This document shows positions 5,424 through 63,940 of a DNA stretch of 64,000 bases, piece by piece. The stretch's first letter is position 1; each line of letters begins with the position of its first letter. The notes below the pieces were generated by a model. It was not told the origin of the DNA and made no database searches. It saw only the letters and a list, made by a program, of their open reading frames with translations. Both the position numbers and the translations under genes were made by a program. The stretch comes from Escherichia phage P1, in sequence record OP279344.1; one strand, given 5' to 3'.

Positions 5424-5951
5424 TTATTCAGGCTTTTGTGGCCATTCAGGATTTGCCGTATCCACACGGCTGACCAGAACACTGTAGCGTTCCCATGCTT
5501 CCAGTCGTGTGCGTTCCTCGTCTGTTGCCATATTCAGCCTGACAGCGCGTTCCAGCGGCTGGATGACTGATTCAGCTTCGGAAAGCAATGCGGCCTTTTG
5601 TGATTCGGCTTGTTGTTGCTGTTCGTCTGCCGTATAAATCCGTTTAACTACAGCTCCATCCTTAAACATCCACTTTCCTGAGTCATCAGCGCGGCGGTTG
5701 GCTGTTATGTCGGGAACCTCAACGACGCTAAAACCTTCAGGGTTAAGCGTGGAGGCATCTTTGGTGATGGCGACAATAATATTATTTTCATCGTAAACAA
5801 TCTTTATGGTGTCTGGCTGAAAGTTTTTCACTTCCTCATACCAGTTTTTTTCGTCCTCAGAATAAAGCCAGATGACTCCGTGCTTCTTTGTTAACTCATA
5901 CTGCTCCAGTGTTTTAGCATTACCCGCTTGTATGTTCTTTAAGTGCATCAT
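5424..5951 (-). CDS. U: U tail-fibre assembly chaperone, 175 aa (expressed orientation)
   Basis: Follows S with a 1-nt gap; Tfa-like N-terminus. Confidence 0.8.
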
Positions 5952-36427: not shown

Positions 36428-37325
36428 GCACTGGAAAAATATTACTATTTATAAACTTTCTCGTGAGGCGGATCTGACCGACTTAGAAGATAAAAAGAAA
36501 ATGATCCTTTTCACGCCATGCGGTAGTCAGGATATGGCCAAGTTCGGTTTTGTATCGCCATTTGGTGATAATTCCGAAGTTATCGCTATGCATGGAAATG
36601 GTTTTATCCTTGTTGAAGCAAAGCGCGAAACAAAAATTCTTCCCCCGCCGGTTATCCAGCGAGCTATTCAAGAAAAAATTGAAAAACTTGAGCAAGAACA
36701 AGCGCGTAAACTGAAGAAAACAGAGAAGGACTCCCTGAAAGACGAAGTTCTGCATTCTCTTCTGCCACGGGCTTTTTCAAAGTTTTCTGTTATCCAGGCG
36801 ATCTACGACGGTTCAACTAAACGTATCTATATCAATGCCAGCGCGCGGCAGGCAGAGGATATGCTCGCGCTTATGCGTAAGTCTCTGGGTTCTCTTCCTG
36901 TTGTGCCACTAAGTGTTGAAAATCCCATTGAGTTAACGCTGACCGACTGGGTACGTGATGCTAGTGCTCCACAGGGATTTCAAATGGGGGATGCGGCAGA
37001 ACTTAAGGCAGTGCTTGAGGATGGCGGTATCGCCCGAGTGAAAAAGCAGGATTTGGGAAGCGATGAAATTTCCACACACCTGGAAGCTGGCAAGCTCGTC
37101 ACTAAGTTGGCACTCGACTGGCAGAACCGCATTAAATTTACACTGGACCATAACTTCAGCATTACCAGCGTCAATTTTGCGGATGAATTGCTTGAGCAGA
37201 ACTCTGATATTGATAGTGAAGATGTTGCGCAGCGACTGGACGCAGATTTCTTCCTATTGACCAGTGAAATTTCGTGCCTGGTTGATGCTCTGGTAAATGC
37301 CCTTGGTGGAGAGGCTAAGCAGTGA
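36420..37325 (+). CDS. hrdC: RdgC-like recombination-associated protein, about 301 aa
   Basis: N-terminus [16 protein letters not shown] resembles the RdgC start (MLWFKNLMVYRLSR); start taken at the internal Met. Confidence 0.7.
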
Positions 37326-40300
37326 AAGAGCTGTGCTATGGATCTGTTTGCAGTGGAATTGAAGCCGCGAGTATTGCCTGGGAACCGTTGGGTATGCGTC
37401 CGGTTTGGTTTGCTGAAATCGAGCCTTTTCCATCGGCCGTTCTTGCGCTCCGCTGGCCCCATGTCGCCAACCTTGGCGACATGACAAAACTTGCCAAAAA
37501 AGTCTTGGCTGGGGAAATCGAATCCCCTGACGTGCTCGTCGGGGGAACACCATGTTTTACCGCGGGGCATATGGTTCTTTGTAAAAATGGTTATAAACCA
37601 ATAGAAGATGTTTGCCCTGGCGATTACGTAGTCAGTCATCTCGGGCGGTTACAACAAGTAAAAAGAGTTGGTTCAAAAATAGCTAATACGGGGTTACTTA
37701 ATGCCGTTGGGCAGCCTTTAGGTATAAGAACAACCAATGACCATCCCTTCCTGGCTGTTCGGTGGAAAGCCCAAAACACCCGGAAAAATGGCACATATTT
37801 TAAGAGAGAGTTGTTGTCTGAACCGGAATGGCGAGCAGCATGTGATATGCCGGGATATCAATGGTGCGCTCTAACTAATTTCAATATTGCATCTCCAGAT
37901 ATTTGTTCTCGGTTCTTGTCTGAAGAACAGGCTATGTATCTTGCGGGCGCTTATGTTGGCGATGGATATATTAGGAGATGGAGAGGTAAATCTAAGAAGG
38001 CGGTTGTTTTTGGCATAAATTGCCAGAAATTGAGAAAGTTTCATTGCCGCATACCAGAAAACATATTTTCCGTGGCAAGCGAAATCCGAGGGAGCATCAA
38101 AGTAACCTTGAATGATACGTGTTATGCCAATTGGCTTAATGAACATTTTGGCGAGTTAAGCCATGCTAAGCGTATCCCTGCATGGGTGATGTCGCATCCA
38201 TTGCGTCATGTGTTTTTACAAGGCTATCTTGATACTGATGGGACACCAAGTGGTAAAGCGGGATTTAGAATTAATAGTGTTAGTCCTGCGCTTGCTTGGG
38301 GCGTTGCGGGGTTGTCACAGACTTGTGGTTATGTTTCTTCGGTCAGCTTTATTGAAGTTGAGCCCAAAAAAGTGATCGAGGATCGCGTGGTAAATCAACG
38401 GAATTATTATCAGGTAACAATCTGCCCGCAGAAATTGTCACGTAAATCAAGATTGGCTCATGGAATGCTTTTACGAACAGTCAAAGAGTTTAAATCGGTA
38501 GGCCTAGATACTGTATACAACATAGAAGTCGAAGGTGATCATTCCTATATCCTCAATGGTGCGGTGGTCCATAACTGTCAGGCATTCAGTATCGCGGGAT
38601 TACGTGGTGGGCTTGATGATGAGCGTGGCGCGCTAACTTTAAAGTATGTGGAGCTTGCAAATGCAATTGACGACAAACGGGCTGAGTCATTTCTCAAACC
38701 AGCCGTTATTGTCTGGGAAAATGTCCCAGGAGTCTTGTCATCGGCAGATAACGCCTTCGGATGTTTCCTTGCCGGATTGGCTGGAGAAGATGCGCCATTT
38801 GAACCAGGTGATCGACCTGAATCAGGAAAAAGTAACGCGTTCTGGCGGTGGGATGGCAAAACCGGTTGCCATGCTCCAAAGTGGCCGCAGTGTGGTTGTA
38901 TTTATGGGCCGCAGCGAAAGGTGGCCTGGAGAATCCTTGATGCCCAATACTTCGGAGTGGCACAACGACGCCGACGCGTGTTTGTTGTCGCAAGTGCTCG
39001 AACAGACCTCGATCCCGCAACGGTACTTTTTGAGTTCGAAGGCGTGCGCCGGGATATTGCGCCGAGCAGAGGCGAGGGGAAGGAAACTACCAGATATACT
39101 TCAAACATCGCTATCAGATCTTGCGATGATACAAACATAGTTGCCATGGCACATGGGCAAGGAGGGGCTGAGATAAAAACCGATAATTCGGCACCAACTT
39201 TAACATGTAACCATGAAGCACCAATTGTATTGCTCGGCGACGGTAGAATACGCCGTCTTACCCCTGTCGAATGTGAAAGGCTGCAAGGTTTTCCTGATGG
39301 GCATACGTTGATCCCTACGGAAAAGCGTAAAAAAGTTTCTTCAGATGAACTGGCATACCTTCGCAATAACTATCCTGATTTAAGCGAAGAAGAGGCCGCG
39401 ATGCTTGCAGCTGACGGACCGCGTTACAAAGCGATCGGCAATAGTATGGCAATACCAGTAATGCGCTGGATTGGCGATCGGATTACTAAGGCCGTATGTC
39501 GGCAGAAAGAAGGAAGTGAAACAAAAGAGCGAAAAGTTAAACCAGCGGCAGAATTCGAACGGTCCATATTCAAATGGGCTGGTGGAAAATTTGGTGTTCT
39601 GGAACAAATCTTTCGCTATTTGCCAGAAGGGAAGCGCCTGATTGAACCTTTCGTTGGTGGCGGAGCTGTCTTCATGAATGCCGGATACCAGGAAAATCTG
39701 CTAAATGATGTGAATGCTGACCTGATTAACTTTTACAAGACTCTGCAACGCGAGGCGCATTCACTTATCACTCTGGCACATCGTTTCTTCCAGGACTACA
39801 ACACACAGGAAGGATACCTGGCAGTACGGAATGCGTTTAACAAACAAGTCTATGATGATTTACATCGCGCAGCGGCGTTTTTGTTCCTGAACCGACATTG
39901 TTTTAACGGATTGACGCGTTACAACCAGGCCGGTGAGTTCAATGTCGGTTATGGGAAGTATAAAACTCCGTATTTCCCATTACAGGAGATGGAAGCCTTC
40001 CTCGGTGCGGAAGGGCGGTCTGAGTTTGTATGCGGTGATTTTGCAGCGGTGATTGAAGCTGCCGGAGAAGGAGATGTCATCTTTTGCGATCCGCCGTATG
40101 AACCGCTTCCAAATACAGAGGGATTCACGAACTATTCCGGTCATGACTTTAAGTTTGAAGAGCAAAAACGCCTGGTGTCTCTGTTGACGGATGCTCATCG
40201 TCGAGGTGCAAAGGTTCTCATTACTAACAGTGGCGCGCCAAACATCAGAGAGCTTTATCATGACAGTGGCTTCAGAGTGGAACCTCTTTTTGCCAGACGT

Positions 40301-40363
40301 TCTGTGTCTTGTAAGGGGGACACTCGAGGTGTAGCTCATGACGTTTTGGGTATATTGCTCTAA
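37322..40363 (+). CDS. dmt: Dmt bifunctional DNA methyltransferase: N-terminal C5-cytosine MTase interrupted by an intein + C-terminal Dam-like N6-adenine MTase
   Basis: C5 motifs I ([11 protein letters not shown]), IV (GGTPC...QAFSIAG, split), VI (ENVPG), VIII (QRRRRVF), [15 protein letters not shown]; Dam motifs [20 protein letters not shown]; GTG start overlapping the hrdC stop. Confidence 0.9.
37553..38575 (+). mobile_element. Intein (341 aa) with LAGLIDADG homing-endonuclease domain inside dmt
   Basis: Block A CFTAGHMV, block [15 protein letters not shown] and LQGYLDTDG, block G VVHN followed by Cys; excision rebuilds [12 protein letters not shown]. Confidence 0.85.
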
Positions 40364-40370
40364 TAAATTT
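40354..40370 (+). promoter_or_regulatory. Consensus C1 operator overlapping the dmt stop, with an overlapping inverted partial copy
   Basis: ATTGCTCTAATAAATTT, 17/17; followed by TTATTAGTG. Confidence 0.7.
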
Positions 40371-40544
40371 ATTAGTGTAATATCGCCTCAATGAATCGTG
40401 ATTTATAGAGCGATTTAGCTGTTAGCCGCGACAGGCGCGGCGGTAAGCATGGCTGGGCCTAGTCCTCCCAGACAAACCACCGAGTTGCCAGGTTGACCAT
40501 GCGCCTAAGTGGCAACGCCGAAGTGCGTTACGAGCTTCCAGTTT

Positions 40545-40570
40545 GCCCATCTTCGGGTGGGCGTTTTTTT
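40545..40570 (+). terminator. Intrinsic terminator (7-bp stem, UUCG tetraloop, T8)
   Basis: gcccatc-ttcg-ggtgggc followed by gttttttt. Confidence 0.6.
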
Positions 40571-41035
40571 CAGGGTTTTCGTCATGGTTAGCGACTTTGC
40601 GGCGGTTTAGAAACTGACCATTAAAGTAAATGCAAACGATGATCTTATGATGGTAGCGGCCTAAGAAGCCAGATGCCACGGGGTATGAGTCGTCCCCCGT
40701 CAAAAAATCGACCGCAGAGTGTCCCCGTCTGTGTATTAGGGAACGGGGAGGCACAACAGGTAAGGGCGCTGGTGTGATTAACCAGATGAACGAGAAGGGG
40801 CCATCTGTTGGTCAGCGTCCTTTCCTGTTGCGTTTTCTTTTCAGCGTAACAGCGGTGCTTAACAGCACTTTGGGTACAGTTCCACGAATTTACGGGTATA
40901 TCCCGTCATGCTGAAGGCGCTAATCACGCTGGAAGCCAGGGTTGTGCATCCCCTGTTACCGAATTGCAGCTAGGGCGAGGTGCGCCGAAAAGCATACGGA
41001 GGTGGAAGCCCTCGCCGGAGACGTACCCGGCAAGT

Positions 41036-54049: not shown

Positions 54050-54115
54050 ATTGCTCTAATAATTCCATATTTTTAAAACGTGATGTACACTCATCACGTT
54101 TTTTATTAGAGCAAT
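54050..54115. terminator. Bidirectional intrinsic terminator flanked by two inverted C1 operator copies
   Basis: ATTGCTCTAATAATTCC ... aaaacgtgatg-tacact-catcacgtttt ... TTTTATTAGAGCAAT. Confidence 0.6.
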
Positions 54116-63376: not shown

Positions 63377-63393
63377 AGATTTATTAGTGCATT
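63377..63393 (-). promoter_or_regulatory. C1 operator-like site between coi and c1
   Basis: Minus strand AATGCACTAATAAATCT, 14/17. Confidence 0.5.
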
Positions 63394-63602
63394 TATTGTG
63401 AGTCTGGCTGGTTAGTGGCCATGAGATATTCGATTGTGTCAGTGAGATCATCCAGGTCGTCTTGGGTGATGCGGTACTCCTGATTGGATATCTTTGAGTA
63501 GTGTTCAGCAATGGCGCGGGCAGCGTCGGTTTCGGCGGGGTCTACAGATAAAGCGTTAGAGCAATGTCTAACGTCGTCGATGGTTGGTGGAATGAAAGCC
63601 AT
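63393..63602 (-). CDS. coi: Coi (C1 inactivator), 69 aa
   Basis: 69-codon acidic ORF immediately upstream of c1 on the same strand; positional. Confidence 0.55.
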   Translation of the reverse strand: MAFIPPTIDDVRHCSNALSVDPAETDAARAIAEHYSKISNQEYRITQDDLDDLTDTIEYLMATNQPDSQ

Positions 63603-63840
63603 AATTATGCCTCACTGTATTGACAACACAGAGCCTGAAGCTCTGACCTACTGTTTCACCCATGATCCATGCTGGGGTAATCTAACAACATTGCGCTGTG
63701 TGTAAGATGAGCAATGTATAGCTGTAATGCCGTTGTATAAGGTTTCCCTGTTTGCTCATTTCCTTCTGAGCCGCTCTACAACGCTGAAGACACATTAAAT
63801 AGTGAATCCAAAGTCGTATTACGAAACGGCGGCAAAACTA

Positions 63841-63857
63841 TAATTTATTAGAGCAAT
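63841..63857 (-). promoter_or_regulatory. C1 operator upstream of coi-c1
   Basis: Minus strand ATTGCTCTAATAAATTA, 16/17. Confidence 0.65.
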
Positions 63858-63923
63858 TGTCAAACAACTATGAAAAACAATCCAGTTTTTGGCTGGTGGA
63901 GTGGGATTTTTCTCTCAAAATTT

Positions 63924-63940
63924 ATTGCTCTAATAATTCT
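63924..63940 (+). promoter_or_regulatory. C1 operator upstream of coi-c1
   Basis: ATTGCTCTAATAATTCT, 15/17. Confidence 0.6.

Follow-up and report, generated by a model that had tools for sequence, protein, structure and literature searches.

Phage P1 is a textbook phage, and DicF was among the first bacterial small RNAs (sRNAs) to be described. Both bear on the locus analyzed here, the interval between dmt and the tRNA-Asn gene (positions 40371 to 41035) in a 64,000-nucleotide stretch of Escherichia phage P1 (record OP279344.1; hereafter, the window). A region of ~1 kb around this interval was 99% identical by BLAST to P1 and to the P1-like phage-plasmids RCS47, JL22, and others, and by this measure the window is a P1-like phage-plasmid. 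At the equivalent positions, the P1 record (NC_005856 / AF234172) lists the end of dmt, the C1 operators Op72a/b, the promoters P1ban/P2ban, a "dicF-like region," trnA (Asn), trnT (Thr), tciA-C, trnI, and ban, and the P7 record carries the same annotation at equivalent places. Since both the features and the sequence identity match this annotated locus, the interval, which a sequence-only reading had singled out as a C1-repressed RNA of 150-200 nucleotides (nt) and/or a leader of the tRNA operon, is the region already known to control the C1-repressed ban/tRNA operon, together with the operon's untranslated 5' leader. That interpretation is correct but not new, as the operator, the promoters, and the "dicF-like" leader are already in the P1 annotation. 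The comparative analysis described here leads us to propose, with a probability of about one half for the explanation as a whole including its mechanism, that the leader is a string of RNA modules and not a single sRNA. The case is carried by two elements, E1 upstream and E2 downstream of a terminator-like hairpin.

Several described systems are close to parts of this locus. DicF, encoded by the dicBF operon of the Qin prophage, is trimmed from a longer precursor by RNase E (PMC5069750, PMC9438474). The put RNAs of phage HK022 are RNA-only processive antiterminators (PMC9378689). StxS-type sRNAs are alike in concept, in that a promoter-proximal terminator yields the sRNA and read-through yields the operon; the published system (PMC7547250) differs in phage, promoter, sequence, and antitermination system (Q protein). 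Phage surveys for transfer-messenger RNA (tmRNA) have relied on ARAGORN (PMC9004378), a program that misses E2.

A covarying pseudoknotted RNA upstream of the terminator

E1 is a pseudoknotted RNA of ~93 nt on the plus strand (40425 to 40517), recognized by its homologs and by covariation. It is present as a single copy; a second copy was sought throughout the 64-kb window and none was found. RNAalifold and manual inspection agreed on a 5' hairpin, H1 (40426-30/40436-40), on an H2 stem (outer helix, 40441-44/40479-82) that encloses a variable hairpin (H2 inner, 40453-57/40467-71), and on H3 (40484-90/40510-16), which abuts H2 without a spacer and has a 19-nt near-invariant loop. A pseudoknot joins the internal loop of H2 to the loop of H3 by pairing GCAUGG (40447-52) with CCAUGC (40497-502).

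To map the distribution of E1, 40384-40600 was compared by distant BLAST with the full set of 5426 complete E. coli genomes. Matches were found in 4421 of these genomes and, P1-type plasmids aside, they had 75-80% identity and were confined to 40426-40520; for the copies between ydfC and dicF, identity was ~77-80%. The copy in strain K-12 lies in the Qin prophage between ydfC and dicB and ends ~20 nt upstream of DicF. Lambdoid phages with E1 include mEp460, 2H10, cdtI, and Stx2c phages, and pattern scans added copies from viral contigs and from E. albertii, Citrobacter, Serratia symbiotica, Trabulsiella, Erwinia tracheiphila, and Izhakiella. No family was reported for E1 in Rfam scans of the window and of Qin.

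The predicted helices are maintained across these copies. When 28 diverse copies were aligned on the basis of the model, 96.8% of cells were paired, a figure to be read knowing that the model guided the alignment of the nested helices and that the collecting patterns fixed two conserved segments. Changes on both sides were seen in eleven pairs; column shuffles gave 3.7 ± 1.3 such pairs (0/500), and controls with slid partners gave 0-3. The inner hairpin of H2 occurs in at least eight different stem versions, and three consecutive pairs of H3 differ in Izhakiella, all of them compensated. For the pseudoknot, which had been left out of the alignment model, 100% of cells were paired, with UA, CG, and UG variants. 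H1 is the weakest helix, showing one-sided changes only.

In 108 of 108 distinct copies, E1 is succeeded, at a distance of 37-129 nt, by a stable hairpin with a U-tract behind it. These hairpins belong to at least 10 sequence types, among them DicF and DicF variants, a GGCGGUACCAG-type, long hairpins with an internal GGAG...AUG, and, in the P1 group, GCCCAUC-UUCG-GGUGGGC. The internal GGAG...AUG of the long hairpins might represent a mini-ORF (open reading frame) or a different sRNA class. In prophages of Serratia symbiotica, Trabulsiella, Erwinia, and Izhakiella, the hairpin is itself 60-70 nt long and lies 60-130 nt after E1. In D6, a relative of P1, ~750 nt of different, ORF-poor sequence (1760-2500 of contig L006) stands in the place of E1 and has its own terminator-like hairpin just before the shared terminator.

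In the window, E1 is followed on the plus strand by a module in the DicF position (40518 to 40570), consisting of ~27 nt predicted to be single-stranded and then a hairpin with a UUCG loop, gcccatc-ttcg-ggtgggc (40545-40562; 7-8 pairs), a G, and a U7 tract (40564-40570). It is a candidate 3' sRNA. By sequence, 40545-40570 has the features of an intrinsic terminator, a G+C-rich hairpin directly before a U-tract, as had been pointed out earlier, although the tail had been given as T8; it is T7 in the window and T6 or T8 in close relatives. The candidate terminator-ended RNA of ~50 nt lies downstream of E1, in a DicF-like position as at the 108 distinct loci. The P1 hairpin was nevertheless ruled out as DicF, because the DicF model RF00039 (threshold, 48 bits) had no match in the window at E ≤ 5 or E ≤ 10, whereas the Qin positive control scored 76.7 bits. 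DicF is further characterized by antisense pairing with ftsZ mRNA and by Hfq binding. When 40388-40575 (188 nt) was folded as a single sequence, it was not more stable than shuffled sequences (z = -0.93), and claims of structure must therefore rest on comparative evidence. The earlier description of the interval as structured thus finds no backing in folding energy, and it is borne out by the covariation in E1 and E2.

The "dicF-like region" of the P1 record corresponds to ~40478-40579 of the window and ends at the terminator. What it shares with the DicF locus really appears to be E1, a separate covarying pseudoknotted RNA upstream of DicF-type hairpins. At Qin dicBF, the sequence homologous to E1 is the ~95 nt immediately upstream of DicF, and, as in P1, a terminator-ended hairpin occupies the equivalent place with protein-coding genes beyond it. 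P1 differs from Qin in that its hairpin is not DicF, in that the module is driven by a C1-controlled promoter 35 nt upstream, and in that E2, hairpins, and tRNAs are inserted behind the module. A sub-threshold match to the Rfam family STnc100 (33.9 bits) was present at 41964-42084 (plus strand), upstream of tciA (42122), and STnc100 also matches the dicB leader directly after DicF in Qin. With E1 and an STnc100-like sequence at both loci, P1 Pban-tciA and lambdoid dicBF therefore have two or more RNA modules in common, in identical order.

A tmRNA-like RNA downstream of the terminator

The second element, E2, is a tmRNA-like RNA of ~175 nt (40575 to 40749, plus strand), identified by its phage homologs, its tag frame, and covariation. 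Distant BLAST of 40571-41035 matched 333 phage records, ~312 of them outside the P1 group with 70-88% identity over ~40574-40750. The hosts of E2 include Ackermannviridae (Det7 and phiMAM1), N4-like Gamaleyavirus (Schitoviridae), Drexlerviridae, Klebsiella siphoviruses, and a Vibrio phage. At the three loci that were opened, every match lay in unannotated DNA, and two of the three lay within tRNA clusters. E2 nearly always adjoins non-canonical tRNA-like genes or T-arm-bearing hairpins. A search of the 64-kb window for a second copy of E2 found none.

E2 comprises a 5' domain (40575-40631), a tag frame GCA...TAA encoding ANDDLMMVAA* (40632-40664, with the GCA resume codon at 40632), an H-type pseudoknot (S1, 40678-83/40695-700; S2, 40689-92/40709-12), and a 3' hairpin (40722-28/40743-49) with a conserved GUGU(G)AUUA loop. 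All copies open the frame with UAAAU-GCA-AAC-GA(U/A) and continue for exactly 10 sense codons before a stop. In a second pattern scan, the stop was always at codon 11 in 92 of 92 distinct sequences, which encoded 17 tag variants; the pattern fixed the first 2.7 codons and left tag length, stop, and the hydrophobic-Ala C terminus free. Tags end in L/M-A/M/V-A/V-A, and others besides that of the window are ANDDVVLMAA, ANDEQFLAVA, ANEEMYLAVA, and ANDNAYLMVA. An overlapping AUG frame varies in length from 6 to 9 codons. A conserved UAG lies upstream of the tag, and beyond it no AUG, GUG, or UUG occurs in the tag frame, which is therefore not an ordinary small ORF.

Comparative evidence also applies to the structure of E2. 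The loop of the hairpin that follows the stop pairs with a segment beyond an A-rich linker, forming the H-type pseudoknot. For S1, 99.6% of cells were paired, and three pairs were changed on both sides in 7-18 sequences. S2 occurs as GUCG/CGAC, CCGA/UCGG, CCAG/CUGG, and CCAA/UUGG. The 3' hairpin covaries as well, with 95% of cells paired. In tmRNA, the stop codon is presented in the loop of helix 5; in E2, a small GGC/GCC-type hairpin around the stop was visible in most sequences, with only 65% of cells paired in the register counted. Inspection of the 5' domain by eye established no equivalent of the upstream pseudoknot PK1.

These features correspond to the mRNA-like part of tmRNA. As in tmRNA (SsrA), and especially its two-piece and permuted forms (RF04321 and RF01850), an A-rich stretch precedes a GCA resume codon, a short tag of 10 codons resembling ANDENYALAA has a hydrophobic/Ala-ending C terminus and a stop, and an H-type pseudoknot, covarying in both stems, flanks the tag. 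Rfam models align these parts: tmRNA_permuted (RF04321) aligns the region before the resume codon and the tag (26.3 bits in the window and, in three other phages, 27-33 bits), and beta_tmRNA (RF01850) aligns the tag and the pseudoknot (~15 bits; gathering threshold, 84). For matches of 26-33 bits, E values were 2e-5 to 2e-3. Conserved motifs in the 5' domain, GUUUUCGU and GCGACUUUGCGG, resemble the 5' strand of the tmRNA tRNA-like domain. E2 differs from tmRNA in its length of only ~175 nt, in its location in phage tRNA clusters instead of a host ssrA gene, and in lacking, where searched, a tRNA-like domain with its acceptor stem (G3-U70), T arm, 3' CCA, or partner strand. ARAGORN run with -ps80 proposed an acceptor stem formed by CGGUAAG of E1 and UUACCG at 40954-59, which we rejected because E1 and E2 occur independently in different phages. 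tmRNA is, in addition, alanylated, bound by SmpB, and active in tagging stalled proteins. By these comparisons E2 falls outside the tmRNA family, yet it is clearly derived from, or converges on, the mRNA-like half of tmRNA.

On two N4-like contigs (L149, ~1815-2007; L230, ~5446-5866), ARAGORN with relaxed thresholds additionally reported AGTNYQLHE(I/M)A*, another tag-like frame that follows the first element after a few hundred bases. This frame possibly belongs to a second, different tmRNA-like RNA.

Long hairpins and a conserved segment before the tRNA genes

The sequence-only reading had noted an extra copy of the 5' arm of a hairpin repeat at ~40754. The arm is present, and it is not a lone arm but part of a complete long hairpin, E3 (40752 to 40832, plus strand; arms 40752-71/40813-32), of the same family as repeats at 41190-41965. 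E3 is kept in P7 and D6, and a similar hairpin is found in Serratia phage phiMAM1. Members of this family border E2 in many virulent phages; in Stx2c phages they come after the RNA in the DicF position. E4 (40833 to 41035, plus strand) consists of a variable hairpin (~40853-40870) and then ~140 nt that are near-invariant up to tRNA-Asn in P1, P7, D6, and relatives. The small hairpin differs in sequence and has the same shape among P1, D6, and E. albertii plasmids. E4 had no homolog outside the P1 group in a BLAST search of the phage collection and no Rfam match. A stable fold or a tRNA was not supported for E4 (fold z = -1.5; the long-range helix of the minimum-free-energy structure is not kept in D6; no tRNA call).

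Besides 40752-40832, the long-hairpin family (CACAACAGGTAAGGG ... CCCTTACCGTTGTG) has members at 41190-41280, 41405-41475, 41610-41709, and 41892-41965, some of which enclose a T-arm-like GGGTTCGAATCCC. All three exact matches in the window to the boxA-like sequence TGCTCTT(T/A)CC lie in long hairpins, two of them on the plus strand in 3' arms. The long hairpins may act as processing sites, represent degenerate tRNAs, or serve Nus factors as boxA sites that shield the long untranslated operon from Rho. In a P1-like contig from IMG/VR (L106), the hairpin 5' arm after E2 joins directly to the hairpin at window ~41405 (region compared, 40765-41404), and the contig thereby lacks E4, tRNA-Asn, and tRNA-Thr; the deletion apparently arose by recombination between hairpin repeats. 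D6 carries an odd 87-nt tRNA-Ser(UGA) in its hairpin-repeat zone (L006, 3607-3693).

Operators, promoters, and neighboring genes

The perfect C1 operator over the dmt stop codon that the sequence-only reading had described is Op72a (Oban-a). ATTGCTCTAATAAATTT is present at 40354-40370 on the plus strand with 0 mismatches to the consensus (17/17), overlapping the dmt stop codon (40361-40363) and the -35 element of P1ban. The operator is moreover bivalent: an inverted second copy with two mismatches (15/17), found by palindrome scan and annotated in P1 as Op72b (Oban-b), lies at 40365-40381 on the minus strand. The P1 record states that "Obanab, former Op72ab, controls expression of ban." It labels P1ban as a sigma-70 promoter and P2ban as predicted, and the coordinates transferred from NC_005856 place P1ban at 40355-60 (-35) and 40378-83 (-10), with a start at ~40390, and P2ban at 40338-43 (-35) and 40364-69 (-10), both on the plus strand. 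Overlap of Op72a/b with P1ban/P2ban and repression by C1 are as annotated for P1. Promoter prediction lent no support, as a generic consensus scan flagged neither P1ban nor P2ban.

The C1 regulon of P1 is known to have many operators. Sites resembling the C1 operator with up to three mismatches numbered 14 in the window, compared with 0.30 expected. The 12 sites other than Op72a/b have 1-3 mismatches and lie at 19215, 20885, 36055, 50426, 54050-54115, 56191, 59105, 61619, and 63377-63940. Their scatter is consistent with a multi-operator C1 regulon.

The first downstream product of the leader is tRNA-Asn (41036-41111, plus strand), which, as the sequence-only reading had it, forms the right border of the interval, and the next is tRNA-Thr (41114-41189, plus strand). 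Rfam scans at permissive thresholds returned these tRNAs and, beyond them, only the weak tmRNA-family and STnc100 matches and spurious miRNA/sRNA matches to hairpins. On the left, dmt (37322-40363, plus strand) encodes 1013 amino acids (aa) here and 754 aa in P1, with an insert at approximately aa 77-418. Pfam matches to Hint_2, LAGLIDADG_3, and Intein_splicing fall inside the C5-methylase half of Dmt. They point to an intein with a homing endonuclease in a P1-type Dmt methyltransferase, without a counterpart in P1.

The proposed modular leader and the explanations that compete with it

If the leader is a string of RNA modules, departure of C1 from Op72 would allow RNA polymerase to start near 40390. 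A fraction of the transcripts would end at 40570, giving a DicF-type RNA of ~180 nt, perhaps cut to an Hfq-type sRNA of ~50 nt that ends in the U7 terminator. Folded E1 would act on the transcribing polymerase in a put-like, RNA-only manner, and the remainder of the transcripts would then read into E2, the tRNAs, tciABC, and ban. The long hairpins would serve as punctuation for processing. E2 would be under selection as a template of the trans-translation type, most likely in cooperation either with a tRNA-like partner encoded separately or with trans-translation factors of the host.

Several observations weigh against this explanation. The Pban start site at ~40390 is transferred solely from annotation, and the Pban transcript, its termination, and its read-through are all inferred. 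D6 keeps the terminator, E2, the tRNAs, and the rest of the downstream region without E1. Part of the invariance of E1 and E2 was imposed by the search patterns used for collection. E2 scores below every Rfam tmRNA gathering threshold (26.3 versus 47 bits for tmRNA_permuted). With default settings, ARAGORN reported no tmRNA in the window or at ten other E2-bearing loci, and at 80-90% thresholds it reported the tag with differing, inconsistent flanks as "tRNA domains." A regular-expression search found no complementary acceptor 3' strand (CGAAAAC-type partner) near E2 at 129 loci, and complements of GCGACTTTGCGG and of the conserved 5' motifs GUUUUCGU and GCGACUUUGCGG were not above chance anywhere in the 64-kb window. 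The covariance model of E1, run on HK022 PL/PR, gave no match with default filters and a best score of 4.9 bits (E = 0.35) with filters off. Unlike put, E1 is tightly coupled to one terminator-ended hairpin, an arrangement that fits a role in an sRNA precursor equally well.

For E1 itself, we tentatively favor a cis-acting RNA that would modify its own transcribing polymerase by put-like antitermination, a proposal that falls somewhat short of probable. It follows from the association of E1 with a hairpin, from the layout in Qin, and from the need of E2 for read-through: E2 starts 4 nt after the U-tract, which leaves no room for a promoter, and expression of E2 and the tRNAs from Pban therefore needs read-through. 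Like put, E1 would be a cis-acting structured RNA of 70-95 nt with two adjacent stem-loops, H2 and H3, which abut and lie ahead of the first terminator; both belong to a phage early operon with no recognizable N-type protein nearby. An N-type antiterminator was sought among the small ORFs that separate E1 from the repressor gene in Qin and mEp460, and none was found; all belonged to PHROGs of unknown function. In Qin, no terminator-like site was found on the plus strand between the operon start and E1. E1 differs from put in having no sequence or covariance-model similarity to it and in adding a 5' hairpin and a loop-loop pseudoknot to the two-stem-loop layout, and homology to HK022 putL/putR was rejected at the level of the covariance model. 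Suppression of termination without protein factors, and its loss in rpoC zinc-binding-domain mutants, are the hallmarks of put itself.

Alternatively, E1 may be the structured 5' domain of DicF-type sRNA precursors, acting as an RNase E guide, in protection, or in host-protein binding, with read-through as leakage. This is possible, if somewhat doubtful. The strict one-to-one pairing of E1 with a terminator-ended hairpin 37-129 nt downstream speaks for such a role, as do the known excision of DicF from a longer precursor by RNase E, the lack of detectable put similarity, and the ability of D6 to do without E1. However, a 93-nt pseudoknot with near-invariant loops would far exceed the known needs of an RNase E substrate, and in both P1 and Qin, genes that are essential or toxic lie downstream and depend on passage of the terminator.

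Taken literally, the sequence-only reading would have one C1-repressed sRNA of ~180 nt (40390-40570), with 40571-41035 as a functionless leader of the tRNA precursor. The geometry of operator, promoter, and terminator fits this, E1 and the hairpin are conserved as a unit, and the U7 tail suits an Hfq-type sRNA, U-tract tails being characteristic of Hfq-binding sRNAs. The expected length of ~180 nt falls within the 150-200 nt estimated by that reading, and repression by C1 and the link to the tRNA operon agree with the P1 annotation. What does not hold is the reduction to one sRNA plus spacer, which overlooks at least two independently conserved RNA modules, E1 and, wholly downstream of the terminator, E2. 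The segment 40575-40749 is conserved at 70-83% identity in ~300 unrelated phages with a tag frame of fixed length and a covarying pseudoknot, and E3 and E4 are conserved within the P1 group, so that the downstream part is not a neutral spacer. We consider a single sRNA distinctly unlikely.

Could E2 be the decaying remnant of a tmRNA gene that was captured and now travels with tRNA clusters as a pseudogene, without present function? Its lack of a tRNA-like domain and its scores below the Rfam thresholds would suit such an origin, and contig L106 shows that recombination occurs easily in this zone. However, the 92 distinct copies, from several phage families, all keep exactly 10 codons and a stop, and compensatory changes have preserved both stems of the pseudoknot as well as the 3' hairpin. 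This is a signature of purifying selection and argues against a dead fragment, and we regard decay as quite improbable. Our best guess is that E2 is one piece of a two-piece arrangement with a separate tRNA-like partner; an alternative is that it interferes with host SmpB-tmRNA.

A ligand- or factor-sensing leader, in which E1 would act as a riboswitch-like attenuator choosing between termination and read-through at the next hairpin, is very improbable. The layout of a pseudoknotted domain followed by an intrinsic terminator is aptamer-like, but no Rfam riboswitch class was matched (E ≤ 10 over 40520-41040; E ≤ 5 over 39800-43200), the terminators vary in sequence and distance, and inspection found no alternative pairing between E1 and the 5' half of the terminator that is common to P1, Qin, and the Stx2c phages.

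Finally, the interval is not free of ORFs, as had been stated, nor is a 15-codon ORF the only one: a GTG-initiated ORF of 110 aa runs on the minus strand (40422-40754), and plus-strand ORFs of 21-46 aa are also present. None of them looks coding. The 110-aa ORF has no Pfam match and spans the T6/T7/T8 length polymorphism of near-identical relatives as well as indels of P7, and the stop of the 21-aa ORF (40908-40973) is not conserved; protein-coding readings were rejected on these grounds, and the noncoding character proposed for the interval survives comparison with relatives. That the interval encodes a protein such as the 110-aa product is hardly credible, even though the ORF exists and the JL22 and SJ46 records carry "hypothetical protein" calls here, as conservation tracks the RNA helices and the plus-strand tag frame. 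Where phage records list "hypothetical proteins" at this locus, as some do, the calls are probably spurious.

Implications for P1 and other phages

Compared with the P1 annotation, in which E1 is not delimited and the tmRNA-like element, the complete hairpin, and E4 are not recognized, two things seem to be unrecorded. One is that E1 is an RNA in its own right, covarying and pseudoknotted, with copies in about four-fifths of E. coli genomes; the other is that the leader contains a tmRNA-like RNA that lacks a tRNA-like domain and is widespread among the tRNA clusters of phages. Neither E1 beside DicF nor E2 in the P1 leader is present in Rfam or in the annotation examined. In the literature searched, we found no publication on E1, on a P1 tmRNA-like RNA, or on six of the tag peptides; a description in Lobocka 2004, Faubladier & Bouche 1994, or King 2011 is possible.

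A more far-reaching combination, which we think rather unlikely, is that E2, in P1 and several hundred unrelated enterobacterial phages, is the coding piece of a tmRNA with no tRNA-like domain of its own and thus belongs to a new class of trans-translation RNA, acting with a separate phage or host tRNA-like partner or by hijacking or jamming host SmpB-tmRNA, and that E1 at the same time represents a third, previously unrecognized family of RNA-only antiterminators. Were both so, stalled proteins would receive a phage-specified degron or their rescue would be blocked, and E1, in ~80% of E. coli genomes, would balance DicF-type sRNAs against toxic genes.

Should neither element be functional, the locus would still be the known leader of the ban operon, and the "hypothetical protein" calls in it would still probably be spurious. 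If E1 controls read-through, this would explain how the genes of dicBF and ban are expressed from behind a strong terminator, and E1 would be a second example of put-like, protein-free antitermination. If E2 functions, phages of at least four families would meddle with ribosome rescue through an RNA that current tmRNA finders miss.

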